A stretch of 64,000 nt of DNA, from the NCBI GenBank assembly GCA_038065475.1, contig JBBTQY010000005.1, forward strand, positions 2,793-66,792. The letters run 5' to 3'. The DNA is from Patescibacteria group bacterium. GTDB lineage: Bacteria > Patescibacteriota > Minisyncoccia > Ryanbacterales > GWA2-47-10b. Below, in pieces: positions 22,229-55,878 of this stretch (within the stretch, counting starts at the first letter, position 1; every line of letters begins with the position of its first letter). The notes below the pieces were generated by a model. It was not told the origin of the DNA. It worked only from the letters and a program-made list of their open reading frames with translations, and made no database searches. Position numbers and translations under genes: made by a program.

Positions 22229-22418
22229 TGAAATAAGAAAAACACTCACTCGGCTTTCTAGAGAGGAGGTCTGCAGGATTACGCGAAGTCTTGTAAAAAG
22301 TCTGATTTTGTGCTATAGTTTCTCCGAACTTAGAACCTCGATAACATAAATTTCTAGTTGAAACACCCGCATCTAAAGCCGAAACTGCTTTTTGATGCCG
22401 AGATTAGGAGGAAGGGAA

Positions 22419-39317: not shown

Positions 39318-39335
39318 GGGTGTATACTAAAAGCA
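39318..39335 (+). promoter_or_regulatory. extended -10 promoter element GGGTGTATACTAAAAGCA upstream of the histidine kinase (near-identical copy at 53371)
   Basis: TGTATACT (TGn plus TATACT) lies 17 nt before the ATG. The same 17-mer with one extra A precedes pilM. Confidence 0.5.
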
Positions 39336-39344
39336 CCAGTTCTT

Positions 39345-40298
39345 ATGAATACTTTTCACGTCATCTCACAATGTCGCAAATATAACGTTTCGTTGTGGAC
39401 TTGCCCGCCTTTTCTCTTTATTGTCATGGGGTTCGTCAATATCGCAGGTATGTTCACAACGGCTATTGCCGCTCAGCGCTTTTCTGATGATCCTGCGATA
39501 GTTATTATCTCGGTTTCGATGATGGCAGCCTTTCTCTTTGTCGTTGGCAATGCGGTAGTTTCGTCATTTCAACGCTTGGCAGATGCCTCTCGCATCAAGT
39601 CAGAGTTCGTCAACATCGTCTCTCACCAATTGCGCTCGCCACTCTCAGCTATCAAGTGGCAGCTCGAACTTATGCTCGACCAGATGAAGTCGGTGACAGG
39701 AGACGTGGCGGTTACTATGGGTACGATTAGCCGGCAAAATGAGCGCATGATCGCGCTCGTCAATGATTTGCTCGAGGTTAATCGCATTGAAGATGATCGT
39801 GTCATCTTGCGTCCGACAAAAATAGCTATCGATAGTTTTGTCGAACAGATTGCCAATGGTTATAAGCCGCTTGCAGAGCAGACAAACGAAAAACTGACGT
39901 TTGTGAGCGAGGCCAGGCCCCTCATAGTATTTGCCGATGAGACAAAGTTGCGCTGGGTAACCGAAAATCTTATCGATAATGCTATACGCTATACAAAGGC
40001 GGGTGGAGATGTGACGGTGAAAGTATTGCGCGCCAAAAATATGGCACGTGTTGAAGTGACCGATTCGGGTATCGGTATCCCGGTAGGCGATCAAGCTATG
40101 ATCTTCCAGAAATTTTTCCGATCAGAAAATGCCGTACGAGCGCGCGCAGAAGGTACAGGTCTCGGGCTCTACCTTGTGCGTTCGCTGGTAGGTGCTATGG
40201 GCGGCAAAGCAGGTTTTGCCTCTATGGAAGGTAAAGGGTCGACATTCTGGTATACGCTCCCGCTCGTCGAGAACAGCGAGCCACCCCAGAAAAAATAA
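39345..40298 (+). CDS. membrane-anchored sensor histidine kinase (no extracytoplasmic sensor domain)
   Basis: Two TM helices, then the HisKA H-box VSHQLRSPLSAIKWQLELM, followed by HATPase_c N, G1 and G2 boxes (NLIDNAIRYT, DSGIGIP, GTGLGL). Confidence 0.8.
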   Translation: MNTFHVISQCRKYNVSLWTCPPFLFIVMGFVNIAGMFTTAIAAQRFSDDPAIVIISVSMMAAFLFVVGNAVVSSFQRLADASRIKSEFVNIVSHQLRSPLSAIKWQLELMLDQMKSVTGDVAVTMGTISRQNERMIALVNDLLEVNRIEDDRVILRPTKIAIDSFVEQIANGYKPLAEQTNEKLTFVSEARPLIVFADETKLRWVTENLIDNAIRYTKAGGDVTVKVLRAKNMARVEVTDSGIGIPVGDQAMIFQKFFRSENAVRARAEGTGLGLYLVRSLVGAMGGKAGFASMEGKGSTFWYTLPLVENSEPPQKK

Positions 40299-40319
40299 TT
40301 ATAAGGTTATATATTTTGT

Positions 40320-40685
40320 ATGAAAAAACTTCTCATTGTTGAAGACGAAGCAGCACTCCAAGACGCTCTTCAAAAAGTATTTACCACAGAAGGCTACGAG
40401 GTATCGCAGGCGTTCGACGGCGAAGAAGGCATTAAACTCGCAAAAGAAAAGAAGCCAGATATGATTTTACTCGATCTCATTTTGCCAAAAAAACACGGCT
40501 TTGAGGTACTCCAGGAAATCAAAGCTGATGCATCGCTCAAAGATGTCCCGGTATTGGTACTCACCAATCTTGAAGAAAGCACTGAGGTGATGAAAGCAAT
40601 CGAGCTTGGCGCACGCGGATATTTGGTCAAAGCAAACTACGCACTCAAGGAAGTTCTTGCAAAGGTAAAAGACATTCTCGGATAA
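40320..40685 (+). CDS. stand-alone response regulator receiver (CheY/PilH-like)
   Basis: LLIVEDE...DMILLDLILP...K; 121 aa, no output domain. Confidence 0.85.
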   Translation: MKKLLIVEDEAALQDALQKVFTTEGYEVSQAFDGEEGIKLAKEKKPDMILLDLILPKKHGFEVLQEIKADASLKDVPVLVLTNLEESTEVMKAIELGARGYLVKANYALKEVLAKVKDILG

Positions 40686-40698
40686 GGATTATTCCAGG

Positions 40699-42453
40699 AT
40701 GAGAATCGATTCGGGGCAACTCAAGGCGTTTCTGTTAGATTCGGGGCTTGTCTCCGAAAAAGACATTGACGCCGCACTTAAAAAATCCAAAGAGCAGGAT
40801 TCGCGTCCCGGCGATATTCTTGTCGCTCAAGGGAAGATAACTCAAAAAGACCTCGAGCGTGTATACGGCTACATCCTCGGGATTCCTTTTGTAAATCTTG
40901 AAGGGGAGAAGATTGAGCCCGAAGTGTTGCATATGGTGCCGGAACCCATCGCGCGAGCTCATAACGTTGTCGCCTATAAAAAAACCGGTAAAGATTTGGA
41001 GGTAGCCATGCTTGATCCGGAGGATCTCGAGACTATTGAGTTCATTCACAAAAAATCAGGGCTGACCATCAAGCCGCGCATGACCAACGAGAGCTCGATG
41101 AAATATCTTCTCTCGCTCTATCAAAAGAGTTTGGAGGCGGAGTTCGGCGAGATTATCAAGGGCGAGTCTGATGGTCTCGTCACCAGCGCTGCAGTTGTTA
41201 CAGAGGCGGGAGAGAGTGGTGAAGATCTTGAAAAAGTTGCTCAAGAGTTGCCTATCATCAAGATCGTCGATACTCTCATACGTCACGCGATTTTGCAGAA
41301 AGCGTCCGATATCCATATCGAACCGCTTGAAAACGAATTGTTGGTACGTTATCGCATTGACGGTTTGTTGCGTGATGCGATGGTGTTGCCAAAAAAAATT
41401 GCCTCAGCAGTTATCGCGCGTGTCAAGGTGCTCTCGAGTCTCAAACTCGATGAAAAGCGTTTGCCGCAGGATGGTCGTTTTAAAATCGAATCACCCGAAT
41501 ATAAGTTTTCAACTCGTGTATCGGTGTTGCCGGTTTACGATGGTGAAAAGATCGTCATGCGTTTGTTGCCTGAGAACGCGCGCGGGTTTACTCTCGAATC
41601 GTTGGGTTTTCATGGTGAAGGCCTCGAACTCTTGCATCAGAGCATAAAAAAATCCGTTGGTATGATTTTGGCGACCGGTCCTACGGGTTCGGGTAAGACA
41701 ACGACGCTCTATACTATGATGGATTTGATTAATACTCCCGATGTAAATATTTCTACTGTCGAAGATCCTATTGAGTATCGCATGCCGCGTATCAATCAGA
41801 CACAGGTACGCCCCGACATCGGGTTTACCTTTGCCAACGGGCTTCGTAGTCTCTTGCGTCAAGATCCCGATGTGTTAATGGTAGGTGAAATCCGTGATGC
41901 CGAAACCGCAGGGCTCGCTATCAACGCAGCACTCACTGGTCACCTTGTACTCTCAACACTTCATACGAACTCTGCGGCGGGCGCTCTGCCCCGCCTCATC
42001 GATCTTGGTATTGAACCGTTTCTTATCGCATCAACCGTCAATATTATCATCGCCCAGCGTTTGGTGCGCACGCTCTATAAATCGCGCGAAGAGTATCATC
42101 TCAATAAAGATCAGATAGCTCAGCTCGAAAAGATTATTGATATGGAGCGCATGCTTAAATTTTTGCGTGACGAAAAGATTATCCCACCTCAAGCGAAGAT
42201 AGAAGAGGTTCCCTTTTACAAACCTGTGCCAACGCCCGATGTGCCAGATGGCTATCAGGGGCGTATCGGTGTGCATGAGGTAATGATTGTCACGCCCGCG
42301 ATGCGTGAGATGGTGATAAAGAATGCGAGTGCAGGCGAACTTGATGCGATTGCGCGCAAATCGGGCATGATGAGCATGCTCGAAGACGGCATCTTCAAAG
42401 CGGTACAGGGTATCACGACGGTCGAAGAAGTGCTGCGTGTGACACAAGAATAA
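40699..42453 (+). CDS. pilB: type IV pilus assembly ATPase PilB (GspE family)
   Basis: N-terminal GSPII_E_N domain. Walker A ILATGPTGSGKTTTLY. Asp box, His box, Walker B. Confidence 0.9.
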   Translation: MRIDSGQLKAFLLDSGLVSEKDIDAALKKSKEQDSRPGDILVAQGKITQKDLERVYGYILGIPFVNLEGEKIEPEVLHMVPEPIARAHNVVAYKKTGKDLEVAMLDPEDLETIEFIHKKSGLTIKPRMTNESSMKYLLSLYQKSLEAEFGEIIKGESDGLVTSAAVVTEAGESGEDLEKVAQELPIIKIVDTLIRHAILQKASDIHIEPLENELLVRYRIDGLLRDAMVLPKKIASAVIARVKVLSSLKLDEKRLPQDGRFKIESPEYKFSTRVSVLPVYDGEKIVMRLLPENARGFTLESLGFHGEGLELLHQSIKKSVGMILATGPTGSGKTTTLYTMMDLINTPDVNISTVEDPIEYRMPRINQTQVRPDIGFTFANGLRSLLRQDPDVLMVGEIRDAETAGLAINAALTGHLVLSTLHTNSAAGALPRLIDLGIEPFLIASTVNIIIAQRLVRTLYKSREEYHLNKDQIAQLEKIIDMERMLKFLRDEKIIPPQAKIEEVPFYKPVPTPDVPDGYQGRIGVHEVMIVTPAMREMVIKNASAGELDAIARKSGMMSMLEDGIFKAVQGITTVEEVLRVTQE

Positions 42454-42456
42454 GCC

Positions 42457-43704
42457 ATGGCACGATTTCAATTTCGCGCACGCGATCGCCAAGGTGTCGA
42501 ACAGTCGGGTCTTCGTGAGGCAAATGATCGCTTTGAGCTTGCGCGCTTCTTGCGCACCGAAGGACTTTTGATGCTTGAAGCAAATGAAATAGGATCCGGA
42601 GGTACCGGTTCAGCACCATCAAAGGGGCTCAAAAAAGATATTTCTTTTGATGTCAATAAATATTTACGCCGCGTCACGCTTTCAGATAAGATTGTATTTT
42701 CAAAAAACCTTGCAGTCATGATTGGCGCGGGTTTGCCGCTCACGCGTGCGCTCGATGCACTCTCACGCGAATCTCACAATCCCAAATTTAAGACCGCTAT
42801 TTTAGACATTGAAGATCAGATCAGGCAGGGTAAGACATTTGCTGAATCTCTCAATAAGCATCCAAAAATTTTCCCGCCACTCTATATTTCAATGGTTGAA
42901 GCGGGTGAAAAATCAGGAAAACTCAGAGAATCACTTACTATCTTGGCGTCGCAGATGCAGGCAGATTATGACTTGGTACATAAGGTGAGGGGGGCGATGA
43001 TGTACCCATCGATCATTTTGGCGGCGATGCTCCTCATCGGTACGCTTATGATTATCTATGTTGTGCCGACGCTCAGCGCCGTGTTTAAAGAGCTTAACGT
43101 TGAGCTACCTGCTTCCACGCAGTTTATTATCAGTCTCTCTGATTTTTTTATTAATCATTTTATTTTGGTGATTACTGGGTTTATAGCTTTTGTTATAGGT
43201 ATTATTGCGTTTTTGCGCACCACTTTCGGCAAGCATTTGATGGATAATGTAATCATTCGCATCCCAGTGATCGGCCCACTCGCCAAAAAATTCAATGCCG
43301 CCCGCGCTTCACGTACCCTTTCCTCTCTTTTGTCATCAGGTGTACAGGTCATGGAAGCGCTCGAAATCTCTGCGCGTGTTGTGCAAAATCATTTGTACGC
43401 GTCTACGCTCATTGATGCGAAAAAATCGATCCAAAAAGGCGAGACCATATCAAAAGTTTTTTTGGCAAACGAACAATTATATCCGTCGCTGGTAGGCGAG
43501 ATGCTCTCAGTGGGTGAAGAGACAGGTGAGAGCTCGCGCATGTTGGGAGAGGTCGCGTCATTCTACGAACAACAGGTAGCCGATGCCACAAAAGATCTCT
43601 CAACGATCATTGAGCCAGTGCTCATGATTGTTATTGGCGCCGTTGTAGGCTTTTTTGCTGTTTCAATGATTACGCCGATGTATTCTCTGGTGGGAGCTAT
43701 CTGA
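42457..43704 (+). CDS. pilC: type IV pilus platform protein PilC (GspF family)
   Basis: Two GspF repeats and three TM segments. 415 aa. Confidence 0.9.
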   Translation: MARFQFRARDRQGVEQSGLREANDRFELARFLRTEGLLMLEANEIGSGGTGSAPSKGLKKDISFDVNKYLRRVTLSDKIVFSKNLAVMIGAGLPLTRALDALSRESHNPKFKTAILDIEDQIRQGKTFAESLNKHPKIFPPLYISMVEAGEKSGKLRESLTILASQMQADYDLVHKVRGAMMYPSIILAAMLLIGTLMIIYVVPTLSAVFKELNVELPASTQFIISLSDFFINHFILVITGFIAFVIGIIAFLRTTFGKHLMDNVIIRIPVIGPLAKKFNAARASRTLSSLLSSGVQVMEALEISARVVQNHLYASTLIDAKKSIQKGETISKVFLANEQLYPSLVGEMLSVGEETGESSRMLGEVASFYEQQVADATKDLSTIIEPVLMIVIGAVVGFFAVSMITPMYSLVGAI

Positions 43705-43705
43705 T

Positions 43706-44302
43706 ATGCGTCGCGCATTTACCATAGTAGAGCTTCTTATCGTAGTCGGCATCGTAGGTCTTTTGGCAGCACTTCTCATACCGGTTTTTGGGACGTGGCG
43801 TGAACGGAGTGTTGTGCGATCTGCCGCACGCGATATCGAAAGTATTTTAAAGCTCGCACGTTCAAAGTCTCTTGCGTCTGAGGGAGGTGCAAAATATGGA
43901 GTGCTTTTTTATGATGGTGCTGCAAACTTTTCTCTTTGTAAGAATCCTGCCTATATTCCCGATCCGGTTGTTCCCAGTTCTTACAATGTGTATTCGTGTG
44001 GCACGCTTATCAATAGCCATACTCTCGGTAGCTCGCTTTCTTTTTGTGCTCCTTACACATCGAGTACCGAGCTTAAAAGTCTTGCTCCCGGTTGGGCGGT
44101 TGTACCCGGAGTTTTTTTCTCAAAACTAACAGGTGAGTATGAAAATATCGATCCTGCCTCTACCGAAGGTGTGATTTACTTCTATAATAAGAATAAGATT
44201 GCGAGTCCCTGCGGTGATCAACCCGCACTTGATGCGTGTCTTGCTGCAAAAACATGTGGGGGAGTCGTCATCACCAAGTCAGGCGTGATTTATGAAAAGT
44301 AA
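43706..44302 (+). CDS. prepilin-type minor pilin/pseudopilin
   Basis: MRRAFTIVELLIVVGIVGLLAALLIPVF N-terminal cleavage/methylation motif. 198 aa. Confidence 0.7.
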   Translation: MRRAFTIVELLIVVGIVGLLAALLIPVFGTWRERSVVRSAARDIESILKLARSKSLASEGGAKYGVLFYDGAANFSLCKNPAYIPDPVVPSSYNVYSCGTLINSHTLGSSLSFCAPYTSSTELKSLAPGWAVVPGVFFSKLTGEYENIDPASTEGVIYFYNKNKIASPCGDQPALDACLAAKTCGGVVITKSGVIYEK

Positions 44303-44789
44303 TATACAACGCGGATTTTTATTTCTCGAACTTTTAGTAGCGGTAGCGCTTATCTCTACTGTTTTTGTGACGCTCTTTTTTTTGCAGTCAAAACTTTTGC
44401 AGATCAAGCAAGATGGCATCATGAAAGTACGCGCAACATACTACGCAGAAGAAGCTATCGAGGCGCTTCGGTATGCGCGCAACGCTAACGGATGGAATGC
44501 GATCTCAAGTCTTTCCAATAATCCTACGACATATTATGTGTCGCTCGTCAGTAATGTTTGGGTAATCAATACAACGGCCGTATCACCTGATGCACCTGCC
44601 AATCTTTTTGCGCGAACCATTCAGCTTGAAGCCGTCAATCGTCAGGGCGATCAGCAAGGGGCGATCGATCCCGCAGGTAGTTATGCTGACTCGGGTACAC
44701 GTAAAGTGACTGTGACGGTGAGCTGGGATAGTGGTGCCAAGCAGGTCGTGCTTGATACGTATCTTACTGACTGGGCATCAAGTCTATGA
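44292..44789 (+). CDS. prepilin-type minor pilin/pseudopilin
   Basis: QRGFLFLELLVAVALISTVFVTLFF N-terminal motif. 165 aa. Confidence 0.65.
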   Translation: MKSNIQRGFLFLELLVAVALISTVFVTLFFLQSKLLQIKQDGIMKVRATYYAEEAIEALRYARNANGWNAISSLSNNPTTYYVSLVSNVWVINTTAVSPDAPANLFARTIQLEAVNRQGDQQGAIDPAGSYADSGTRKVTVTVSWDSGAKQVVLDTYLTDWASSL

Positions 44790-45319
44790 AGAATCGCGCC
44801 TTTACTCTTATTGAGCTTTTGGTATACGTAGGAGTGCTCATATTGGTGCTCGGAACTATTTTCTTTTTTATCGTTAATATTGTAAGCAACGAACGATCGA
44901 TCGGAGATCGTGTACGCATGATGGATGAAGCAGATTTTGTTATGCGCCAAGTGATCGACCAAACGCGCGGAGCAAAATCAATCGACCGGTCAACACAATT
45001 TGCGGCCGGTGGTAATGGAGGTCAACTCGCACTCATCAAAACCAGCTCAACGGTAAATTTTTATGTTGATGTCTCCGATCCGTTACAGCCAAAGTTGATG
45101 ATGGTGGACAGCGTAGATCCCAGCTACATACGCACTCTTACCTCTCCGCGTGTAGCAGTTGATATATTTGCGCTCACCTGTGTTGGTAGTCCGAGCTCCG
45201 CGTGTGCCGCCCTACCGACCTCCGATCCGCAAGGTGTACGCATCACCCTTGGTCTTCGCGATGTTACTACAAATCAGTCCACGGTTATTACTACCAGTGC
45301 TACACCACGCGGCTATTGA
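44786..45319 (+). CDS. prepilin-type minor pilin/pseudopilin
   Basis: MKNRAFTLIELLVYVGVLILVLG. 177 aa. Confidence 0.7.
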   Translation: MKNRAFTLIELLVYVGVLILVLGTIFFFIVNIVSNERSIGDRVRMMDEADFVMRQVIDQTRGAKSIDRSTQFAAGGNGGQLALIKTSSTVNFYVDVSDPLQPKLMMVDSVDPSYIRTLTSPRVAVDIFALTCVGSPSSACAALPTSDPQGVRITLGLRDVTTNQSTVITTSATPRGY

Positions 45320-45321
45320 TC

Positions 45322-48150
45322 ATGAAATATAACGGATACAACAAAGGACTTGCAGCACTGACGACAACCGTTATCGTGCTTGTTGTTTTGGTCATACTTA
45401 TCGCAAGCTACGGGCTTATTACTTCGAGTGCCGCGCGACAATTTTCAAACGTATATCAATCAGCAAAATCGTTTTATGTCTCTGAGGCAGGTATTGAAGA
45501 TGGTCTCGCGCGATATCTGCGCTCAGGCGGCACGGTTACTGGTAGCTGGACACTCGCGAGTCTTTCATCGGGTACGACCGATGTTGCGATCAACGTAAGC
45601 ACACAGGCGACCCTCACGAGTGCAGGTGATGTAGGTACGCGCCAGCGCAGTATTCAGGTAACGATCAACCAAAACCCTATCTATACTTACGCGGGCATTA
45701 TAGGAGACGGTGGTCTTTGGATGTCAGATAGAACCGATATCAAGTGTGTGAGTGGTTCAGGTTGTAAGGGGGTTGATGAGGCGGGAGACGCCGGTACCAT
45801 TTGGGTCAACGGCCCGATTTGGGCCAACGGTACCGATGCGAGCGGCAAGTACGGATCTGGATCTGGTGACGCTCGTATCGTTGGACATGCGTATACTATT
45901 GGCAAAGTAGATATCCGACCATCTGAGAAAAAAGAGCCAAGCCCAAATACTGCCGAGCATAAGTTTGTATGTTTGGGGGTCGGTATTACCGATAGTGCAT
46001 GTACCATCAAAGCAACGGCTATCGCTCAAAAAGTTCGTATCCATGAAGGTGACAATATAACAAAGCGTTTTGGGTTTCGTATTGCGTATCATGGCAATGC
46101 GCATCAATTGCCAGGTACAAAGGCCTATCCAGTGCGACAGTCAGGGAGTGTTTGGGAATTTCCTCAGCGCATAAAACTTGATGCTGATATTGGAACCACA
46201 GCGCAAGATGAACGGCTATTTGCAAAATTTAAGATTGATACCAACCACGATGGTGTAGGGGAGACATTGCCAGCTGATACTCCCGATTGGGTATATTTCA
46301 GTGTACCGAGCGGCGGGCTTGCAGAAGTCGATGATGATGAGTCGGTATATATCGTGTTGCAGGCAGAGTCGTCGGGCGGTGACGCAAATAGTTATTATAA
46401 AATTTATTATGATGACAGCTCAGCGCCCGGATATATTCATACCGGCGGACAAGGGCAGTATATTACCAGCGGTACTTTTTGTCCGCCATCAGGTGCTTCT
46501 GATGATTGCTATTCAACATTGACGAGTGCGAGTACGCCAAAATTGCAAGATGACCAAGGAAATGACCGCGCCGATTTTCATTTTCGTCTTTACTCGCTTG
46601 GTTCGGAAGATGATGATTACGAACATTCATTGCAAGTGTTTGGTGAGCTTCATGCTGATGAGGCGATCGGCGCAACGGTTGTGGGTGAAGGATCTTCAGC
46701 TTCAAATAAAGATATAGCTTTTGTTGGGCGTCGTTTCGCATCTGCCTTTTGGAAAGATCGTAATGCAAACCATATGATTTGGGGATATAGTTTTGTCCAA
46801 CAGCTTGATAATTGTGATTTGGGTGGTGCGGGCACCGAGACCGTGGGAGACGATCTGGAGACGCGCCGTGGGTATCGCACGTTTTGTGATTCACAGGTAC
46901 GCAACGTACAAGATCCATCAAGTTTAAAATATGGTGGTTCTAATCAACGTCGTTTCTCAAACGGTGCCGCCTACCCAGTGCTGACTGGTTTTTATTGCAA
47001 TCCGTATAAAAATGCAAACAATGTCGAGTACGGTGGCAATCAAAATTCTTGCGTTCAAGATACCAATGGCGCGAGCGGGCTCGATCCCAACGGCCGCACC
47101 CCGTACCAGTTCAATGCACTTGCCAATTCAAGCGGTCGTGGGTGTTATGTCGCATGCGGATCCGGATTAAATAGTAGCTGCGGCGCACAAGATATTTTTA
47201 AAACACATTATGTATATCCCAGCCCCGATGCAGGTGCGTATGGTGAGCATCCATATAATTTTTGTAAGTATGCGGGCGGCACGCTCGATGAAGGATACGC
47301 GAGCGAGGCAGCTTTTAAATCTATGCTTGCGAGTGTGTATGGCATTGCAGCTGATGTACAAGATCTTTATCTTCCCAAGGCGCCGCCGCCAAAGGGCCCA
47401 TGGCCAATTTCTGATACAAAGATCAATGGGTGGGTTAGTTCTCTTTTTACCAATACTGCTCTCACAGACGGAAGCGCGGGAGATGATACTATTGGAGACA
47501 ATGCTTATACAATTAGGTCTTCACGCTCATGGCCTCCCGCAGGACAATCGACAGCGCCTGTAAAGATTACCGGTAATCTCGTCATTCGCAACGGTGCAAA
47601 ATTAACTCTCAACAAGGGCGCACATATTTATGTGACGGGTAACTTGCATCTTGTTGACGACCCTAACAAACTAGGAGGTACCATAGAAATGAACAATTCA
47701 AGTGGTGCGTCTGGTTGGGATGCTAATAATGTTGGTTTGGTAATAGTCGACGGTTTTGTAGATACCGAGAGTGATACTCAGCTTCTTGGTGGTAGTAAGT
47801 CACAAGATGAATATATGCTGGTTATTTCGCGCTCGACCAATATGGGCGAATTTGATCCTTATGATTGGGCGGCAGGAGGTGTACCGGCTGCGACTGAGTA
47901 CGACAAGGCAGCGATTTATGCACTGAGTCATCAAGACGATGGGGCCACGGTATCGTATTATGCTCCCTACGGTTCGGTGGTACTAGAGAATGACAGCAGC
48001 AGACCAAATGCTATGCAGATTGCAGCACGTAAATTGGTAATGCGAAGAGACACAGAGATATCATATGATTATGGTGTGCTCGATATGGTTTTCCCTGGGG
48101 GACCCGCGAGCGCTACCGGAATAAGTGACTATGATGAAATCGCGCCATAA
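45322..48150 (+). CDS. giant PilX_N-domain minor pilin / putative tip adhesin (~942 aa)
   Basis: Start reassigned to the ATG at 45322 (TGATCATG junction). N-terminus NKGLAALTTTVIVLVVLVILIASYGLITSSAARQFSNVYQSAKSFYVSEAGIEDGLARY matches the PilX N-terminal pattern. Long Gly/Asp/Ser-rich beta-type body. Confidence 0.7.
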   Translation: MKYNGYNKGLAALTTTVIVLVVLVILIASYGLITSSAARQFSNVYQSAKSFYVSEAGIEDGLARYLRSGGTVTGSWTLASLSSGTTDVAINVSTQATLTSAGDVGTRQRSIQVTINQNPIYTYAGIIGDGGLWMSDRTDIKCVSGSGCKGVDEAGDAGTIWVNGPIWANGTDASGKYGSGSGDARIVGHAYTIGKVDIRPSEKKEPSPNTAEHKFVCLGVGITDSACTIKATAIAQKVRIHEGDNITKRFGFRIAYHGNAHQLPGTKAYPVRQSGSVWEFPQRIKLDADIGTTAQDERLFAKFKIDTNHDGVGETLPADTPDWVYFSVPSGGLAEVDDDESVYIVLQAESSGGDANSYYKIYYDDSSAPGYIHTGGQGQYITSGTFCPPSGASDDCYSTLTSASTPKLQDDQGNDRADFHFRLYSLGSEDDDYEHSLQVFGELHADEAIGATVVGEGSSASNKDIAFVGRRFASAFWKDRNANHMIWGYSFVQQLDNCDLGGAGTETVGDDLETRRGYRTFCDSQVRNVQDPSSLKYGGSNQRRFSNGAAYPVLTGFYCNPYKNANNVEYGGNQNSCVQDTNGASGLDPNGRTPYQFNALANSSGRGCYVACGSGLNSSCGAQDIFKTHYVYPSPDAGAYGEHPYNFCKYAGGTLDEGYASEAAFKSMLASVYGIAADVQDLYLPKAPPPKGPWPISDTKINGWVSSLFTNTALTDGSAGDDTIGDNAYTIRSSRSWPPAGQSTAPVKITGNLVIRNGAKLTLNKGAHIYVTGNLHLVDDPNKLGGTIEMNNSSGASGWDANNVGLVIVDGFVDTESDTQLLGGSKSQDEYMLVISRSTNMGEFDPYDWAAGGVPAATEYDKAAIYALSHQDDGATVSYYAPYGSVVLENDSSRPNAMQIAARKLVMRRDTEISYDYGVLDMVFPGGPASATGISDYDEIAP

Positions 48151-48700: not shown

Positions 48701-48741
48701 TATACCATTCTCAGAAGGGGCACAGCTGGTATAATAAAACC

Positions 48742-50007
48742 ATGCAAAGCTTGCGTGGTTTTTCTTTGGTAGAGGTTCTGGTTGCGATAGGTATTTTTGT
48801 TGCAGTTGCTATTTCATTTTTTGGAGCGACCGTTATCGCATTTGACGCCGCTTCACAAGCGGGAGACAAGATTGAGGCAGCTTTTCTTCTTGAAGAAGGT
48901 GTTGAGGCAGTAAAATTTATGCGCGATTCAAGTTGGCTGACCAATATTGCTCCGCAAGATATTTTTTATGAACAATGCCTCCGGGTAGAAAATACGACGC
49001 CCCCGGCCGCTCCAGGTGTGCAATTCACAACCAAACCCGTTGGGCTCAAGTTTTTGATGCATATGGATGCGACAGGAGGAACTGCGACTGTGGCGAGCGA
49101 CTCTTCGGGGGGCAATCATCACGGTATTATTCATCCTTCTGTTATCGTCAATGGTACTTTTGTTGGCCCTCGATACACAGCATTTAATTTCAACGGGGTG
49201 CAATCTATAGAGATCCCAGCTCATACTGATTTTACAAACCTCGGTTCTTTTACTGTTTCTGCATGGGTGAAGACTGCCAATGCAGGCTCAGGGTTGAGGC
49301 GAATTGTCTCTCAACAGTTTCTAACTAACTACTGGTATCTTGGTTTAAGAGATAACATTATCGAATTTGGTTCTTCCAACGATGCTCTCCAAATAACTAA
49401 AGGGTCTGCAATCAGTAGCAATCCTCCTGTCTGGCACCATGTTGCCGTCATCAGAGATATCGCGAGTCCATCCAAGAAGCTTTATTGGTATTTGGACGGT
49501 GTTTTAATAGGTTCCGAAGATATTTCAAGTACAGCGGTTTACAATATGAGTACCGCGCAGATTTTTATTGGAGGCAGAAATTTTGTGGGAAATAACTGTA
49601 CATTGAATTGTTACAACGGAGATTTGGATGAAGTTTCTCTCTATGATCGCGCACTCAGCTCTCTCGAGATTGAGTTATTGGCAAAACACAATATTCCCGC
49701 ATGTGGTTCTGAGCTCGGTTCTTTTATTCGTTCTGTACGCTTTACCAATGTATGCCGCACTGAGAGCGCGCAATCTATCCACGGCATTGCATACGCTGTT
49801 GATGATATTGTTGGTACAACGACTGCCACAACACTCGGCGATAATCTTTGTGGTTTTCCGGGGGCTCTCGCAAATAGCACGACGCTCGATCTCGATACGA
49901 AATATGCGCGTGTACGCACCGCATGGAAAAGAAAAGATAAATTCTTTGAAGAGGCAACAGAGTTCTATTTTGCTAATCTTTTTTCAGAAAGCAATGGAAA
50001 CAATTAA
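48742..50007 (+). CDS. prepilin-type protein with LamG/concanavalin-A-like lectin domain
   Basis: MQSLRGFSLVEVLVAIGIFVAV N-terminal motif. LamG-like segments GSFTVSAWVKTANAG...YWYLGL...LDEVSLYDRALSSLEI. Confidence 0.7.
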   Translation: MQSLRGFSLVEVLVAIGIFVAVAISFFGATVIAFDAASQAGDKIEAAFLLEEGVEAVKFMRDSSWLTNIAPQDIFYEQCLRVENTTPPAAPGVQFTTKPVGLKFLMHMDATGGTATVASDSSGGNHHGIIHPSVIVNGTFVGPRYTAFNFNGVQSIEIPAHTDFTNLGSFTVSAWVKTANAGSGLRRIVSQQFLTNYWYLGLRDNIIEFGSSNDALQITKGSAISSNPPVWHHVAVIRDIASPSKKLYWYLDGVLIGSEDISSTAVYNMSTAQIFIGGRNFVGNNCTLNCYNGDLDEVSLYDRALSSLEIELLAKHNIPACGSELGSFIRSVRFTNVCRTESAQSIHGIAYAVDDIVGTTTATTLGDNLCGFPGALANSTTLDLDTKYARVRTAWKRKDKFFEEATEFYFANLFSESNGNN

Positions 50008-50548
50008 GCTCCTCCCCGTAAAGTCTTTGCGGATAAAAAGCGGGCAAGCGGGATCTACGTTGTTTGAGGTTCTGGTATACGTCGCTATTTTTGTTCTCAT
50101 GAGTATCGCCGTCGCTCGAGGGTTTGGGCAGGCAGGAAGTCTTTTTACGGTATCGCGCAATGAACGCCGCGCGTCGAGTGTTGCTCAGGTGACGCTCGAT
50201 CGAATTGTCCGCGAGATACGTCTTGCCTGTGACGTCGAGAGTGTTACGCCGACGAGCATTCAACTGCGTTCCTATAGTGATTTTGAGCCCGCCACAGGGC
50301 AGGCTTGTAATACTTCAAAAACCATTAGCCTTGCGTCCCAGCGAATCTCACTCAATGGAGTACCGTTGACGCCTCTCGGAGGCGTCAGTATCAATGCGCT
50401 TCAGTTCCAATCAGTCGTGATGCCCGCGAATTTTGCGGGGTCACAAGCGGTACGTGTCGGTATTTCGGTGATTGCAGGATCGGGAAGCGGGCAGATTTCT
50501 CGGATGTATTATGCGACAGCGGTTTTGCGCCAAAGCTATGCTCAATAA
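49994..50548 (+). CDS. prepilin-type pseudopilin (184 aa)
   Basis: Start reassigned to METIKLL (49994). The ORF-track 49628 start overlaps the previous gene out of frame for 380 nt. GSTLFEVLVYVAIFVLMSIAVA motif. Confidence 0.55.
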   Translation: METIKLLPVKSLRIKSGQAGSTLFEVLVYVAIFVLMSIAVARGFGQAGSLFTVSRNERRASSVAQVTLDRIVREIRLACDVESVTPTSIQLRSYSDFEPATGQACNTSKTISLASQRISLNGVPLTPLGGVSINALQFQSVVMPANFAGSQAVRVGISVIAGSGSGQISRMYYATAVLRQSYAQ

Positions 50549-53339
50549 CACAAGAAAAAATAGGGCAGAAAACAGGGGTCACGTAGCAATTTTTACGGTT
50601 ATTCTTTTTCTTGCTGTTTCTCTGGTCATGATGGGCACCTTTAGCACGTTGGCGTTTTCTCAGTTGCGAGCGGCGCGAGAGATGATCAAAGGAAAGGCTT
50701 CATTTGCTACAGCCGAGTCGGGAGCCGAAGATCTTTCATATCGAGCACTCAAGGCTTTAAGTTTGCCGGTCAATGGGTCAGGTAAAAAACAGGCGATCGT
50801 GAGGCTCAATGGGGGAAGCGCTACTGCGGTCATGGATATTGATGGTTCGGCGAGTTCCAATTATCCGAAAAACTTTGAACTGTCTTCTTCTGGCAACGTT
50901 TCAAGTCGCTTTAGAAATATAAAATTACGATTTGAGATTCCCGACCCCAATCTTTCAGTAACCATTCGAGGTGCTATTGAGGCGGGTTACTTAGGTCTGG
51001 TGCTCGGAGGTGACGCGCAAATTCATGGTACCGGCGGATATGGCAAAGGTGATGTATTTTCAAATGGCAATATTGTGAGCTTGGGTGGTCGCCCTGTGAT
51101 CAACGGTACCGCCACAGTCGCGGAAGGTATCGGAGCCATTCCCCAACAGATTCATAATAATACTCTCGCTACCGCACCTACGTGTGCGGGATGTAAATTT
51201 CAAATTAGAGGTAATGATTTAGCCCAGGCGTTTCTTTCCAATACTACCGCTGAGATTTTGAAAATAAGGCTTTTTATGCAAAGAGTACAAACCCCAGCAG
51301 CTGGTATCGAAATAAAAATTCGTAGAAATATGCGGGTCAGAAAATCTGATGGCGCGACGTGTATACGTAAGGAGAATGCTAGCGGGGTGATGGTTGATTA
51401 TGTTGGAGGCGCTGAGCAGGTAGCTGGAGTATGCCAAGACTTTCCTGCGACGACAGGCAATGATGTCGCAAGTGCAAATTTCGCCGCAGGTGTTATGAAT
51501 GGTGCTACAAAATTACCTAATCCAAATGAATGGCGATGGGTTAATTTTGACATTACCTCCCCGGGTGCTCAGGACAATATGACGATGGATGAAAAGTTTT
51601 GGATCGTTATAGATGGGCAGTGTTTAGGATGTACCACGGCATACTATGAGATCGGCGGAGTTGACGGGGGTTACGGGTATGGAGGCGCAGACAAAGATGG
51701 TTTGGTGAATGTTGATTACGACACAGATCAAGGTGATGCCCCAGTGCTTTATTCGATGACTGCTTGGTCTCTTTTCCCCGCTCCCTATCCTACAGCTGTT
51801 ACTCCAGCTGCTGTAGACCTTGCGTTTGAGGTGTATATGGGGAATGTTGATACGGAGATTAATGCTGGGAATATTACTGACAATAATCTGCCTCTGCAGC
51901 GAGGAGTGGCAAATACGGGAGGTAACTCTTTGCAAATTGTTGGGAATGCGTTTGCTGAGAAATTACGAGCTGTGGCTGTTGGCGGATATGCGTGGTATAA
52001 ATTTCTCGATCCCGCTCAACCCACAGGTGAGGTAAAAGCCGGGGGTGATTATAATCTTGTGAGTGGGATAATCACGCCTCATGTGTCGCCTCCAAATCCC
52101 TATCCTAGAAGTACGTGGGTTGATGCGCTGGTTTTAGGGAAGGCCTATCATGATTTGGATGCTAACCAATATGTTTGTCATGATGAGTTTAACCATATAA
52201 ATGCGCAACCCTTGAGTAATCCGCCGGGTATCGGCGTATCTAATCAGGCGTATAAAAAACCGTGGGCGTCTACAGCGGGTGCTTGTAATCAGCCTCGCTA
52301 TACAACAGATGCACGCTGGTACTGTTGGGATTTTTATTGCTCGTGCAATTGGGCGGGTTCAAATACTGTCGCCGATGGACCAAGCGACACAGATGGCATC
52401 GATGATCCTTTTTGTCAGTATATTCCAACGTCACCTATAGATGATCCAGACGACAAAATCCCAGCCCCCACCGAACCTTTTGGTATCAAAGGCAAGAGAC
52501 TTCATGTCGACGAATTAAATAAATGGCGCGCTATGGCAAAGAGTATGGGAGTAGTTAATGTTGCAGCGGAGGCTCCGGGTGGGGGCACGCTTACTCTCAA
52601 TACACCAGCCGGCGTGCCTACCCTTACCGAAATACCGGGCACCACTCCTCTTACTATGACCCCCAATAATTGGCCCATTAAGGGCGCATATCTCGATGGT
52701 AATTTGACATTGGGAACTTCTGCTGAAATTCGGCTTACAGGATATTTAGACGATGCGACAAGAGTTAAATTGGGCTTGGGTCCACAATATACAGGCAAAT
52801 GCCCCTATATGTATGATACGTACCCTGTGGGCGACTCTCGGCGTGATAAACCATGCTATGTGCTATGGATTACGGGAGATCTTATCTTAAATGGAGAAGC
52901 AAACAGAATCACCGTAAAGCTCCCTTCAGGTAATAGCCCACAAATATCACCCTGGGCATTAGGGCAGGATTTTAATTCAAGTGTCGCGATTGTTGTAGAG
53001 GGAAAGGTAGTTATTAGTGGAGATACCACCATTATGGAGCCGCCTCCATCTATCGATAACGATAACGCTTTTTACATCGTATCTCTTAGTCCGAAAACTG
53101 GAGATACCGATCCCGCTATTTCTCTGAGCGGAGACCCAGAAGGATCTACGTTCTTTGCATATCGTGGTGGCATTAAACTTCTCGAAACCGTAAAGGTAAA
53201 GGCGCTCGCAGGGCAGGAGATACGCGCTACCGGTAACGTAAAGATATTCTTTGATGAAGGATTGCGTCAGCCAAACGAGGTAAATGGGACTAAATCTATC
53301 AGTGGGGCAAATATTACCCAGTATTACGAGAAGCAGTAG
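50538..53339 (+). CDS. second giant PilX_N-domain minor pilin / putative tip adhesin (~933 aa)
   Basis: Start placed at MLNNTRKNRAENRGHVAIFTVILFLAVSLVMMGTFSTLAFSQLRAAREMIKGKASFATAESGAEDLSYRAL, a PilX_N-like region. Overlaps the previous stop. Long beta-rich body. Confidence 0.7.
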   Translation: MLNNTRKNRAENRGHVAIFTVILFLAVSLVMMGTFSTLAFSQLRAAREMIKGKASFATAESGAEDLSYRALKALSLPVNGSGKKQAIVRLNGGSATAVMDIDGSASSNYPKNFELSSSGNVSSRFRNIKLRFEIPDPNLSVTIRGAIEAGYLGLVLGGDAQIHGTGGYGKGDVFSNGNIVSLGGRPVINGTATVAEGIGAIPQQIHNNTLATAPTCAGCKFQIRGNDLAQAFLSNTTAEILKIRLFMQRVQTPAAGIEIKIRRNMRVRKSDGATCIRKENASGVMVDYVGGAEQVAGVCQDFPATTGNDVASANFAAGVMNGATKLPNPNEWRWVNFDITSPGAQDNMTMDEKFWIVIDGQCLGCTTAYYEIGGVDGGYGYGGADKDGLVNVDYDTDQGDAPVLYSMTAWSLFPAPYPTAVTPAAVDLAFEVYMGNVDTEINAGNITDNNLPLQRGVANTGGNSLQIVGNAFAEKLRAVAVGGYAWYKFLDPAQPTGEVKAGGDYNLVSGIITPHVSPPNPYPRSTWVDALVLGKAYHDLDANQYVCHDEFNHINAQPLSNPPGIGVSNQAYKKPWASTAGACNQPRYTTDARWYCWDFYCSCNWAGSNTVADGPSDTDGIDDPFCQYIPTSPIDDPDDKIPAPTEPFGIKGKRLHVDELNKWRAMAKSMGVVNVAAEAPGGGTLTLNTPAGVPTLTEIPGTTPLTMTPNNWPIKGAYLDGNLTLGTSAEIRLTGYLDDATRVKLGLGPQYTGKCPYMYDTYPVGDSRRDKPCYVLWITGDLILNGEANRITVKLPSGNSPQISPWALGQDFNSSVAIVVEGKVVISGDTTIMEPPPSIDNDNAFYIVSLSPKTGDTDPAISLSGDPEGSTFFAYRGGIKLLETVKVKALAGQEIRATGNVKIFFDEGLRQPNEVNGTKSISGANITQYYEKQ

Positions 53340-53370
53340 ATCTTTTTATACTACGAAGGGTGGCAAGACT

Positions 53371-53388
53371 GGTGTATACTAAAAAGCA
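53371..53388 (+). promoter_or_regulatory. extended -10 element GGTGTATACTAAAAAGCA immediately upstream of the pilM ATG (likely a leaderless or near-leaderless start)
   Basis: TATACT at 53376-53381. The ATG at 53389 is 7 nt downstream, with no Shine-Dalgarno sequence. Confidence 0.5.
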
Positions 53389-54453
53389 ATGAAGCCGTTT
53401 TCATTTCCGGCAATTGGTGTCGATATATCTGACGAATCATTTAAATATATGCGATTTGCGGATATAGAGAAGCGTCGTGCTATCGGATTTTTTGGCGATC
53501 ATGATTTGCCAAGCGGATTGATTGTGGAAGGTGAGATCAAGGATGTACCCGGAGTCGCTAAAATCTTAAAAGATACCCTTCGCCCATTTCATCGCCATAC
53601 GCCTTACCTTATTTGCTCGCTGCCCGAAGAAAAGGGATTTTTGCGTCTTGTACGCATGCAGAAGCTGCCTGCCTCCGAGGTGCGCCAAGCACTCGAGTTT
53701 CAACTCGAAGAGCATGTGCCCTATCCACCCGGCGATTTGTATTTTGACTATCAGGTTTTACCGCAGGGTGCCGTACCCAAAAATGATATGCAGGTGGTGG
53801 TGACGGCATACCCAAAGGCTCTTATCGAGTCATATATTCAAGTGGTCGAACAGGCGGGTTTTATCCCTGTTGTCTTTGAGCTGGAATCGCAGGCGGTTGC
53901 ACGCGCCGTCTCGCCTCGCGGGAGTGCCGAGGCGATTTTGGTGGGTGATATTGGTCGCACGCGTACTACTTTTTCTATCGTGTATCACGGCAATGTACTT
54001 TTTACCTCAACTGTAAAAATGGGCGGCCGCGATCTTGATGCGACACTTCGCGATTCTCTCCATATCACTGAAGAGCAAGCGCGTGAGATCAAGATTGGCC
54101 GCGGTATCGATTTTTCATCAGAAGAAATTATAAAATCAATGTCACCCGCGCTTGCCGTACTCAAGACAGAGGCAGAGCGGCAGATTCATTTTTGGGAGAG
54201 GCGCCGCGAAGAGGGGGAGCCTGCAATCACCACGGCATATCTTTGCGGGGGAGATGCGCATCTCAAAGGGTTACCTGAGTTTCTCGCTCGCGATCTTGGT
54301 GTGACGGTTGAACGTGCCAAAATTTGGGAAAATCTATTTGATCTTACTCACTATGTGCCTCCGATGCGTGCGCACACCACGATGCGTTATGCGACCGCTT
54401 TCGGTCTTGCGATGCGGGGTGATGATGATTTGTTTTCCGACATACATATATAG
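53389..54453 (+). CDS. pilM: type IV pilus assembly protein PilM (actin-like ATPase fold)
   Basis: IGVDISDESFKYMRF..., 354 aa, actin-like fold typical of PilM. Confidence 0.85.
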   Translation: MKPFSFPAIGVDISDESFKYMRFADIEKRRAIGFFGDHDLPSGLIVEGEIKDVPGVAKILKDTLRPFHRHTPYLICSLPEEKGFLRLVRMQKLPASEVRQALEFQLEEHVPYPPGDLYFDYQVLPQGAVPKNDMQVVVTAYPKALIESYIQVVEQAGFIPVVFELESQAVARAVSPRGSAEAILVGDIGRTRTTFSIVYHGNVLFTSTVKMGGRDLDATLRDSLHITEEQAREIKIGRGIDFSSEEIIKSMSPALAVLKTEAERQIHFWERRREEGEPAITTAYLCGGDAHLKGLPEFLARDLGVTVERAKIWENLFDLTHYVPPMRAHTTMRYATAFGLAMRGDDDLFSDIHI

Positions 54454-54455
54454 AT

Positions 54456-55007
54456 ATGAATTTACTCCCTCCCCATTACAAAGCAGGTTTGCGCCTCGAG
54501 GCATGGAGACGGTTTTTGGTATTTTTCGGCATATATCTATCTGTTATTGGTGTTGCTGCGGTCATGCTGCTTTTGCCTTCATATTTTTTCTTGCAGTTCC
54601 AAATCGATGAGCTCAAGGCACTTGAGGAAACTACCAAAGCTTCTCCCGATTACAAGAGTATGGAAGAGGGCAAAAAGACAGTTAGTCGCGTCGGGCGGCT
54701 TCTTTCTACTACCAATCAGTTTTTTGTGAGCGATACCGAGGCGACCCCACTGATCGAAGATATTGTCTCCCGCATGCCTGCTTCAGTATCATTGTCAGAT
54801 TTTTCCTATTCGCGCGCCGAGGGTGCGCCTGCCACTCTCAAGTTGACTGGTATCGCGGGGCATCGTGATGATCTTACAAAATTTGCAGAAGATTTGCAGA
54901 AGAGCCCGTATATAAAAGAAAAAATATCTGTACCCGAGTCTAGTTACTTGCGAGAGTTTGATACACCGTTTGCGCTTTCGATTACCATCAGCCCTGCAAA
55001 ACAATGA
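54456..55007 (+). CDS. pilN: type IV pilus assembly protein PilN
   Basis: MNLLPPHYK N-terminus (INLLP-type), single TM, coiled-coil. Confidence 0.75.
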   Translation: MNLLPPHYKAGLRLEAWRRFLVFFGIYLSVIGVAAVMLLLPSYFFLQFQIDELKALEETTKASPDYKSMEEGKKTVSRVGRLLSTTNQFFVSDTEATPLIEDIVSRMPASVSLSDFSYSRAEGAPATLKLTGIAGHRDDLTKFAEDLQKSPYIKEKISVPESSYLREFDTPFALSITISPAKQ

Positions 55008-55528
55008 GCGATTTCCGAAAAAACTTTTTTATAACATTAGGAGTAGTCATCTTAGCCGCGTGTGTTTTCTTGGGTGTATTTTTGTATTTATTTTTGGGCA
55101 TTATATCACCGCTTTCCGGCGAGTTTCGTTTGGTGCAAGAAAATATTAAGATTGCAGAAGAGCGCATTGCCGATTTTAAAGGTCGCGTAGCGCCCGCATT
55201 GCTGCGCGAAGAGGCAGATATGGTAAAGATCGAAAAATCATTTTTTGTCTATTCTCCCGATACTGCAAAAGAGTTTATTATTTTTCTTGAAAATGCCTCA
55301 GCCAGAAATAATTTAAAGGGCGATATAGGAAGTCTTCCGCAGGCGACCTCGCCCATTGTCACCATGAATCTTTCTGGTAGTTTTCGCGACATTATTACGT
55401 TTTTGCGAGAGATTGAAAATGGGCCGCTTTTGCTGGCGATCAATAGTGTTTCTCTTCGTGGCGCGGGAGAGTCGATTGCGCTTTCTATCCAGATGCGCCT
55501 ACCCGTTCCTCCGCAGGGTTCGCAATAA
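55004..55528 (+). CDS. pilO: type IV pilus assembly protein PilO-like
   Basis: Single TM (ITLGVVILAACVFLGVFLYLFLGII), then a coiled-coil and an alpha/beta domain. Position follows pilN, with an overlapping stop and start. Confidence 0.6.
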   Translation: MSDFRKNFFITLGVVILAACVFLGVFLYLFLGIISPLSGEFRLVQENIKIAEERIADFKGRVAPALLREEADMVKIEKSFFVYSPDTAKEFIIFLENASARNNLKGDIGSLPQATSPIVTMNLSGSFRDIITFLREIENGPLLLAINSVSLRGAGESIALSIQMRLPVPPQGSQ

Positions 55529-55536
55529 TATTTTAT

Positions 55537-55878
55537 ATGGCAATAAATTTAAACATAGATTTCAACTCGCTTTTTAAAAAAAGAAAGGCAACCGCCCATT
55601 CTTCCGATGCTCTCATACCGGCGACAAAAAAAGTATGGCGTTTTTCTATTATGTTTCTTGCCATTTTTGCCATATTGATTGTGGCCTATGACGGCTATAT
55701 TTTTTGGGAGTATGTCTATAACCAGCAAGATGTTGATATCGGTGGTCAGGGTACGGTAGAGGGTATCAACCGCGCGCTTTTTGACAACGTATCAAAATCA
55801 ATTGATGAGCGCGCATCGAAGTTTAGAGAAGCAAGGGGAGCAGAGGTATTTAAAAACCCTTTTCATACGAGCAAGTAG
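55537..55878 (+). CDS. hypothetical single-TM protein at the end of the pilMNO operon
   Basis: 113 aa with a TM helix (FSIMFLAIFAILIVAYDGYIFW). Possible PilP analogue. Confidence 0.45.
   Translation: MAINLNIDFNSLFKKRKATAHSSDALIPATKKVWRFSIMFLAIFAILIVAYDGYIFWEYVYNQQDVDIGGQGTVEGINRALFDNVSKSIDERASKFREARGAEVFKNPFHTSK

Follow-up and report, generated by a model that had tools for sequence, protein, structure and literature searches.

In type II secretion systems (T2SS) and type IVa pili (T4aP), the minor pilins GspH-I-J-K and FimU-PilV-PilW-PilX are equivalent to each other, and the K subunit is a bulky cap that starts assembly (PMC7248040; PMC9934059). Some genomes contain multiple minor-pilin sets, among them those of Myxococcus xanthus and cyanobacteria (bioRxiv 10.64898/2026.02.12.705559; PMC7248040), and experiments in Synechocystis showed that two such sets independently prime two pilus types (bioRxiv 10.64898/2026.02.12.705559). 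One of the questions posed by uncultivated Patescibacteria is how they recognize and attach to their hosts. Minor pilins at the pilus tip have been put forward as prime candidates in a recent perspective (PMC11665869), and the genetics of TM7x (Nanosynbacter lyticus), where efficient host binding and competition require PilX2, supports a role of minor pilins (PMC11623550). Here we describe the type IV pilus (T4P) operon at positions 39345-55878 of a 64-kb stretch (the window) of contig JBBTQY010000005.1, which comes from the 0.1-um filter fraction of Hainich groundwater and belongs to an ultrasmall organism of the Patescibacteria (candidate phyla radiation, CPR). We propose, with a probability of roughly 0.55, that the operon encodes a monoderm-type T4P machine with two tandem core minor-pilin sets that would form alternative tips, the second set acting as a specificity module.

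Single subunits of the locus also have described counterparts. ComZ of Thermus thermophilus has a GspK-like pilin fold with a beta-solenoid like that of ice-binding proteins before the last strand, and it has been argued to fit only at the tip (PMC6561018); all cyanobacterial PilX proteins share the architecture of ComZ (2026 preprint, bioRxiv 10.64898/2026.02.12.705559). PilC of Streptococcus sanguinis is a modular pilin with a concanavalin A (ConA)-like lectin module that binds glycans (PMC9934059). With multiple minor-pilin sets, ComZ-like tip pilins and lectin-bearing pilins already described, the general picture of T4P is not changed by our locus. Like FimU-PilV-PilW-PilX and GspH-I-J-K, each of its sets has four pilin-like genes, whose order and sizes fit H-I-J-K, with a K-like protein that is the largest and lacks the glutamate at position 5 (Glu5), and, as in Synechocystis, two sets appear to serve one machinery. 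Unlike the known core sets, they follow one another within the machinery operon, flanked by pilC and pilM and with no PilY1; their K subunits have ~940 residues, one set appears to be replaced between close relatives, and membership in the known families is sub-threshold.

The operon consists of 16 open reading frames (ORFs), all on the plus strand, whose neighbors abut or overlap by a few bases. It is bordered by a divergent nusA upstream and an opposite-strand tRNA-Arg gene downstream, and encodes a histidine kinase (HK), a receiver, PilB, PilC, eight pilin-like proteins, PilM, PilN, a PilO-like protein and a 113-residue membrane protein. The initial annotation gave the gene order and the coordinates and sizes of its ORFs correctly; it counted six pilin-like genes instead of eight and left out the last gene.

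The pilin genes follow the order small-small-small-giant, and this order occurs twice. Set 1 comprises the H-like mp1 (43706-44302; 198 residues; N-terminus MRRA/FTIVE, the slash separating positions -1 and 1), the I/PilV-like mp2 (44292-44789; 165 residues; QRG/FLFLE), the J-like mp3 (44786-45319; 177 residues; NRA/FTLIE) and the K/PilX/ComZ-like giant G1 (45322-48150; 942 residues). Set 2 comprises the H-like mp4 (48131-48700; 189 residues from its ATG, in an ORF that opens with GTG at 48125; AKG/VSLME), the I-like mp5 with a LamG domain (48742-50007; 421 residues; LRG/FSLVE), the J-like mp6 (49994-50548; 184 residues; QAG/STLFE) and the K/PilX-like giant G2 (50538-53339; 933 residues). We compared the two sets by profile-profile alignment (hhalign) of family profiles from four genomes. 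The reciprocal best pairs are mp1-mp4 (97.2%), mp2-mp5 (95.2%), mp3-mp6 (94.0%) and G1-G2 (91.8%, 177 columns), and every non-corresponding pair between the sets scores below the corresponding ones. Moreover, the sub-threshold hints of pilin type run H, I, J in this order in both sets, and the K position is held by the bulkiest pilins, which have Thr (G1) or Phe (G2) at position 5, both after Gly(-1), in place of Glu5. GspK, as Korotkov and Hol reportedly described in 2008, is also without Glu5. On these comparisons, we prefer to read the eight pilins as two sets of four genes with matching positions, each resembling GspH-I-J-K and FimU-PilV-PilW-PilX.

This correspondence bears on the elaborate tip complex that had been proposed for the locus. 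It is unlikely, in our estimate, that all eight pilin-like proteins, with both giants and the lectin pilin among them, form one complex. Such a composite tip would suit the tight packing of all eight genes into one operon, and two bulky modular pilins have been modeled in one S. sanguinis tip (PMC9934059). However, the genes form two equivalent sets, each with its own Glu5-less cap, and a one-start helical tip, as in the GspK-I-J structure, has one apex (PMC7248040). Relatives normally have a single set, so one set suffices, and the rates of evolution differ greatly between the two sets. With a K cap in each set, two alternative tips on one machine seem more likely than one composite tip.

The difference in evolutionary rate became apparent from the comparison with close relatives. 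Four relatives (L003, L005, L006 and the 'Ca. Ryanbacteria' contig L013) are syntenic with the window, all with HK, receiver, pilB, pilC, set 1 and set 2 next to nusA; the operons of L003 and L005 run on through pilMNO and the gene of the 113-residue protein, and L006 and L013 end inside set 2. For all protein pairs among the window, L003, L005 and L006, the same pattern was seen in every pair: the identity is 79-96% for PilB, the receiver, HK, PilM and PilC, 65-82% for PilN, the PilO-like protein and the 113-residue protein, and 65-89% for set 1, but only 25-46% for set 2. Measured against the relatives, HK has 83-91% identity, the receiver 90-95% and PilB 89-96%, and the set-2 giants differ in length (933, 883 and 703 residues). 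The divergence has sharp boundaries. In blastn, homology of the window with L003, L005 and L006 is unbroken up to 48140-48168, at the G1 stop codon (48150), and homology with L003 and L005 resumes at 53349-53382, 7 to 40 nucleotides before the start of pilM (53389). L006 is silent on this second boundary because it ends inside set 2. Across the intervening 5.2 kb, blastn detected nothing between the window and L003, L005 or L006.

One possible, still tentative, explanation is that the slot from G1 to pilM is a swappable host-range cassette, a four-gene tip module of ~5 kb, H-I-J-K-like and in some cases with lectin domains, exchanged by recombination at fixed boundaries. Episymbionts would then change their attachment targets as phages swap tail-fiber modules, and the conserved set would have a housekeeping role in motility or DNA uptake. 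The same divergence could be expected if set 2 were a redundant, decaying duplicate that drifts under relaxed constraint and has no distinct function, given that set 2 is 25-46% identical while the machinery is ~90% identical and that the giant and I-like proteins vary in length. We regard decay as very unlikely: in all genomes examined, the ORFs of set 2 are unbroken and retain class III signal peptides and Glu5, which disfavors simple decay; the single, presumably essential, set of an outgroup is of the set-2 type; and the divergence is bounded exactly by gene ends, which fits replacement. A diversity-generating retroelement as the source of set-2 variability was considered and ruled out, as the window has no pair of template and variable repeats. 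In L005 (17223-17879), an IS200/IS605-type Y1 transposase gene separates the gene of the set-2 giant from pilM, exactly at the cassette boundary.

The outgroup just mentioned, L009, is the nearest one with a single set (PilB identity 77%), and its set is of the G2 type; L013 carries a second G1-type set in slot 2. Slot 2 therefore holds different sets in different lineages. We rejected a simple, recent tandem duplication as the source of the double set, since its sets are deeply divergent and L009 has, as its only set, one of the set-2 type; those of the window are old paralogues. The G1 orthologue of L013 (11327-14193) is split into ORFs of 528 and ~288-348 residues, which may be due to a frameshift, an assembly error or a pseudogene.

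To place the double set in a wider context, we scanned GTDB species representatives for PilB and surveyed the ORFs of the resulting 80 patescibacterial loci with profile hidden Markov models (HMMs). The usual Parcubacteria-type layout is HK, receiver, pilB, pilC, three genes for proteins of ~285, ~162 and ~177 residues, a K gene (408-980 residues) and pilM-N-O, with the HK-receiver pair directly upstream of pilB in most of these loci. Both pilC and pilM are present in 47 loci. Nothing lies between them in 17 of the 47, one set (2.4-5.5 kb) does so in 28, and one set with an extra ORF of ~1000 residues (~7 kb) in the remaining two. Two K proteins, with 9.7 kb between pilC and pilM, were found only in the window among 48 loci including it. 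The double set thus seems specific to the Ryanbacteria-like lineage of the window, and giant K proteins recur elsewhere. In L044 and L064 (Azambacteria), an extra ORF of 932-1063 residues lies between the H-like and I-like genes of the single set, a different route by which a large protein has been added to the cassette.

The giants apparently consist of a widespread scaffold of ~420 residues with lineage-specific inserts of ~500 residues at one site, because short K proteins and other giants match them at both ends only. In BLASTP, short K-type proteins of other Parcubacteria (418-631 residues) span G1 residues 1-165 and 678-940 end to end, and other giants of ~900-980 residues share just these two ends with G1. 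A G1-family profile searched against 1.84 billion representatives retrieved 581 clusters at E<=1e-3, six of which are full length; most of them have 400-620 residues and match profile positions ~1-190 and ~690-929. The close homologues of G1 number ten and are all from Patescibacteria. G2 is a near-orphan, for which a word-indexed search of 5.8 billion proteins returned G2 itself and one weak match. Besides hhalign, it is linked to the G1 family by the G1 HMM, which scores 28.9 bits against it over three collinear patches, and by BLASTP, in which both its ends match short K proteins of other Parcubacteria. The ~500-residue insert has no detectable relatives outside the clade. The inserts of the giants are rich in cysteine, with at least 12 Cys residues conserved in the G1 family. 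Conservation within this family is highest at G1 residues ~437-500 (window ~46630-46820), with ...GELHADEAIGATVVGEGSSA.NKDIAFVGRRFASAFWKDR...QQLDNCD. Because conservation peaks here, inside the clade-specific insert and not in the shared scaffold, this stretch may be a functional site.

AlphaFold 2 gave an unusable model of G1 with a 10-sequence alignment (predicted local distance difference test [pLDDT] score 37) and a better one with 50 sequences (pLDDT 66). In the latter, an N-terminal helix (residues 6-67) and a four-stranded sheet (74-116), both with pLDDT ~90, form a pilin fold, followed by beta-rich regions (123-460 and 700-915) and a final strand (933-940). Some of the 50 aligned G1-family members also match DUF5649, DUF7305 or bactofilin, which we take to be beta-helix-like repeats. 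The predicted order of a pilin helix and sheet, a large beta-rich part and a final C-terminal strand resembles that of ComZ and cyanobacterial PilX, and like ComZ the giants occupy a GspK-like gene position and are predicted to fit only at the tip. Unlike ComZ, they are nearly twice as long and carry the additional ~500-residue cysteine-rich insert, and the matches to ComZ have E-values of 0.08-0.5. In a comparison of the G1-family profile with PDB sequences, in which no match was significant, ComZ ranked second (E-value 0.083) after a ribosomal uS11 chain (0.078), and ice-binding proteins came next (0.3-3). In a Foldseek search with the G1 model, jelly-roll proteins and proteins with carbohydrate-binding modules (CBM) topped the list and ComZ had an E-value of 0.5. 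ComZ is the best structural analogy for the giants, short of demonstrated membership.

The likeness to ComZ raises the alternative of a competence pilus, which would serve mainly in DNA uptake and use the giants as DNA receptors at its tip. ComZ binds DNA (PMC6561018) and, among solved sequences, comes nearest to the giant family, although not significantly so. The window contains a comM-like gene (4784-6310, minus strand), as the initial annotation had pointed out when it suggested DNA uptake, and a comEC-type gene (PF03772 Competence) is found ~5.5 kb downstream of L004, a related locus with a single set, the interval being filled by genes for TIM, PGK, RecJ and RNase H. However, the comM-like gene is unlinked, 35 kb away, and together with the weak resemblance to ComZ it is all that speaks for DNA uptake in the window itself; TM7x T4P-2 pilin mutants kept wild-type competence (PMC11623550); and the LamG module and the variable cysteine-rich inserts suggest glycan or surface ligands rather than DNA. 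We therefore consider a dedicated competence pilus improbable.

The nearest biological parallel to the giants is offered by PilX1 and PilX2 of TM7x (PMC11623550). These proteins also come from a CPR organism, are the largest minor pilins of their loci, carry accessory domains, lack a canonical PilD signal and have been proposed as tip adhesins, and the Foldseek neighbors of G1 (jelly-roll capsids and carbohydrate-active enzymes) resemble those reported for PilX1. TM7x differs in that it has two separate machineries, each with a locus of its own, of which locus 1 includes pilD and pilT, and in that a jelly roll and a beta-propeller make up the accessory domains of PilX1 and PilX2.

The second unusual subunit is mp5, which had been annotated as a pilin with a lectin-like LamG domain. 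A search with the domain model confirmed this assignment: residues 153-310 match Laminin_G_3 with 80.4 bits (2e-22; cut-off 27.6), so that a class III signal peptide and a ConA/LamG-superfamily domain are combined in one polypeptide. The ~110 residues that follow the domain align with the C-terminal strands of mp2 in the profile comparison, and because the C-terminal part of mp2 aligns after it, the LamG domain is apparently an insertion within an I/PilV-like pilin. The I-like orthologues in slot 2 have 421 (window) and 390 residues (L003) with LamG, and 172 (L005) and 153 residues (L006) without it. Like PilC of S. sanguinis, mp5 comes from a monoderm T4P and has a class III signal peptide, a short pilin moiety and a beta-sandwich of the ConA/LamG type; in the PilC-type tip complex, the modular pilin is a partner of the I-like subunit. 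Unlike PilC, mp5 seems to have the lectin-like domain inserted and not appended, and its glycan binding is putative. A PDB sequence search with mp5 found nothing. The earlier suggestion that a lectin-bearing pilin and large tip-type pilins mediate attachment is plausible in the light of these data.

We hypothesize that PilB, PilC, PilM, PilN and the PilO-like protein, with the 113-residue protein as a partner, polymerize a separately encoded major pilin, for which the prepilin gene at 28266-28778 is the candidate. Assembly would be primed from the tip by either of the four-subunit H-I-J-K-like sets, which would stay at the tip. G1 and G2 may act there as ComZ/PilX-type caps and adhesins, with the insert as the displayed ligand-binding part; because the scaffold carries a cysteine-rich insert of ~500 residues, the K-like subunit is predicted to fit only at the very tip. 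Set 1, which is conserved within the clade, might serve a conserved function, and set 2, including the LamG pilin, might be a module that changes quickly and sets the specificity for a glycan of a host cell or a surface. The membrane kinase and the CheY-like receiver most likely tune PilB activity or pilus output via protein-protein interaction and not via transcription. More speculatively, the kinase may sense something within the membrane and the receiver may act directly on PilB. There are precedents for both, as PilS senses membrane pilin and CheY-like regulators bind PilB1 in Synechocystis.

If correct, the locus illustrates how a conserved Parcubacteria-type pilus machine can stand beside one tip set that is exchanged wholesale within exact boundaries, and how a tip cap can be built from a conserved scaffold with lineage-specific inserts. 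Candidate specificity determinants would be G2, the LamG pilin and the inserts of the giants. As a simple comparative marker, the content of slot 2 might be examined for correlation with the hosts that co-occur in groundwater metagenomes.

Several results weigh against the interpretation as a pilus machine with two tandem tip sets. The giants had been annotated as PilX_N proteins, and in direct searches the N-termini of both fail this model (PF14341, cut-off 25.5): G1 reaches 12.2 bits as a whole and 13.7 bits with its first 200 residues, and G2 has no match to PilX_N or to any other Pfam or NCBIfam family. Direct classification with both databases, using the whole proteins and four segments of each, yielded just this sub-threshold match of G1; the giants of other Parcubacteria are likewise unannotated. 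Taken literally, this failure of the N-termini is an outcome that the initial annotation had named as refuting its reading. What stands of the PilX_N assignment is a link at the family level, as 14 of the 50 aligned G1-family members match PilX_N (best 1.7e-10), and we keep it because of this profile homology and the confidently predicted pilin fold. The G1 model is of moderate quality overall (pLDDT 66), leaves residues 469-660 unmodeled and gave no significant Foldseek match in the PDB (none with an E-value below 0.03). Most of the signal between the two sets comes from the N-terminal helix; after trimming it, the corresponding pairs still rank first, but weakly, with 27-43% hhalign probability. 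No model of an H, I, J or K family in Pfam or NCBIfam was passed at its curated cut-off. A prepilin peptidase and PilT were not found near the locus, and we assume that processing and retraction are encoded elsewhere. Finally, set 2 may have diverged so extremely because constraint on it was relaxed, and not through diversifying selection or the exchange of cassettes.

The small pilins show how far the family models reach. All six have Gly or Ala at position -1 and Glu5, and all six fall below the Pfam N_methyl cut-off; the NCBIfam GFxxxE model (cut-off 16.3) is passed by two of them, mp1 (18.8 bits) and mp5 (17.2 bits). Below the curated cut-offs, mp1 matches GspH (9.3e-6), mp2 matches PilV across the full profile (2.1e-6), and mp3 matches ComGF (2e-3) and HpsC (1e-3). 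In set 2, the equally sub-threshold matches are to GspH (0.017) and Verru_Chthon cassette protein D (2e-4) for mp4, to GspI (7.5e-5) and ComGE (3.9e-5) for the N-terminus of mp5, and to GspI (0.003) and GspJ (0.034) for mp6, which is ambiguous between I and J. A joint profile of mp1 and mp4 found pilin alpha1 helices at 3.7e-9 and FimU at 0.11. A six-frame motif scan of the window detected exactly seven ORFs with class III signal peptides, namely, those of the six small pilins and of a 170-residue prepilin encoded on the minus strand at 28266-28778 (QHG/FTLIE). This prepilin alone passes N_methyl in the window (3.4e-9, 36.3 bits; cut-off 21.2). It had been singled out before as the candidate major pilin, and it is our candidate as well.

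Consensus promoter and terminator matches in the operon are not more frequent than in shuffled sequences (22 against 27 expected for promoters and 19 against 17 for terminators). The top promoter-like site on the plus strand of the operon, TTCTCA-16-TG-TATAAT at 48708-48735, is in the 41-nucleotide gap between mp4 and mp5, and a 12-bp hairpin that follows it (the two together spanning 48708-48762) overlaps the start codon of mp5. Through this site, the lectin pilin, mp6 and G2 might be expressed separately.

The remaining genes of the operon encode the regulators and the machinery, most of them as initially annotated. The first gene (39345-40298; alternative start at 39426, giving 290 residues, according to some gene callers) encodes the HK, with matches to HisKA (2.8e-13) and HATPase_c (1.7e-27). 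Its two N-terminal transmembrane (TM) helices are joined by a loop of ~7 residues and HisKA follows directly, so that it has no sensor domain, either extracytoplasmic or cytoplasmic. The CheY-like receiver (40320-40685; 121 residues) matches Response_reg over its whole length (3.4e-25) and stands alone, with no output domain. PilB (40699-42453) matches T2SSE with 401 bits (5e-120) and has an N-terminal MshEN domain (1.2e-14), as expected of a PilB-type assembly ATPase, and the platform protein PilC (42457-43704) matches T2SSF (1e-53) in two repeats. Downstream of the pilin genes, the actin-like PilM (53389-54453; PilM_2, 2.1e-37, 129 bits) and PilN (54456-55007; 2e-6, 28.2 bits against a cut-off of 22.8; one N-terminal TM helix) pass their cut-offs. 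The next protein (55004-55528; 174 residues, bitopic) had been called PilO; it has only weak matches, to GspM (1.1e-3) and T2SSM (0.1), but resembles PilO in gene position, in size and in having one TM helix. The last gene (55537-55878) encodes a single-TM protein of 113 residues that matches no Pfam or NCBIfam family; the protein is 66-70% identical in the relatives and is also present in L009.

The locus had been described as lacking a secretin, a prepilin peptidase and PilT, and Pfam scans of the ~45 ORFs of the window (~30 outside the operon) found no Peptidase_A24, no second ATPase of the T2SSE/PilT type and no secretin. The absence of pilQ from the T4P locus of a CPR organism is consistent with the CPR-type envelope that had been proposed. 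Neither is pilD, pilT or pilQ encoded in the ~10 kb to the left or the ~9 kb to the right of the window on the 304-535-kb source contig. The left flank encodes KsgA, a TSP3-repeat protein and a cluster resembling a type IV secretion system (T4SS), and the right flank has thioredoxin/DsbD genes and genes for ribosomal proteins and elongation factors. In the 80 related loci, phmmer with the PilB of the window found no PilT-like ORF within 10 kb of pilB, and a search for membrane ORFs with G-x-G-D-x-K, a motif heuristic only, found no PilD-like ORF within the same distance. Unlinked pilD and pilT, like the HK-receiver partners, thus appear to be features of the clade that are not peculiar to this genome. 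A prepilin peptidase should be encoded somewhere in the genome because of the canonical G/F-x-x-x-E N-termini.

Some other features of the window and its surroundings were also noted. The T4SS-like cluster (L007, 12767-21935; ~0.2-10 kb to the left of the window) encodes PrgI, a TraC-like protein and a P-loop ATPase of the VirB4/TraG type, and is preceded by the gene for the TSP3-repeat protein and an ORF of 890 residues; a predicted T4SS has been reported to be essential in Saccharibacteria (PMC11665869). Next to the candidate major pilin gene, a plus-strand gene (26039-28225) encodes a protein of 728 residues with He_PIG/Big_9 Ig-like repeats, possibly a surface adhesin. Three secreted proteins encoded on the plus strand (22392-24077, 24231-25781 and 60529-62655) end in a cysteine-rich motif of the MopE type, and the first two also have long linkers rich in Pro and Thr. 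These two are tandem paralogues with a 300-nucleotide repeat of 72% identity and a 42-nucleotide element, 95% identical, downstream of each; their stretch is locally GC-rich (0.57 versus ~0.47), and one of the proteins has a weak match to DUF7305.

The interval between trigger factor and nusA contains the gene for a membrane H+-pyrophosphatase of 657 residues in the window (35977-37950), L005, L006 and L013; in its place, L003 (2151-2678) has the gene for a soluble pyrophosphatase of 175 residues. The window also contains eight tRNA genes (16144-20744 and 57447-57520), three of them for tRNA-Pro, and those at 17974 and 20673 are paralogues with 84% identity that lie 2.7 kb apart.

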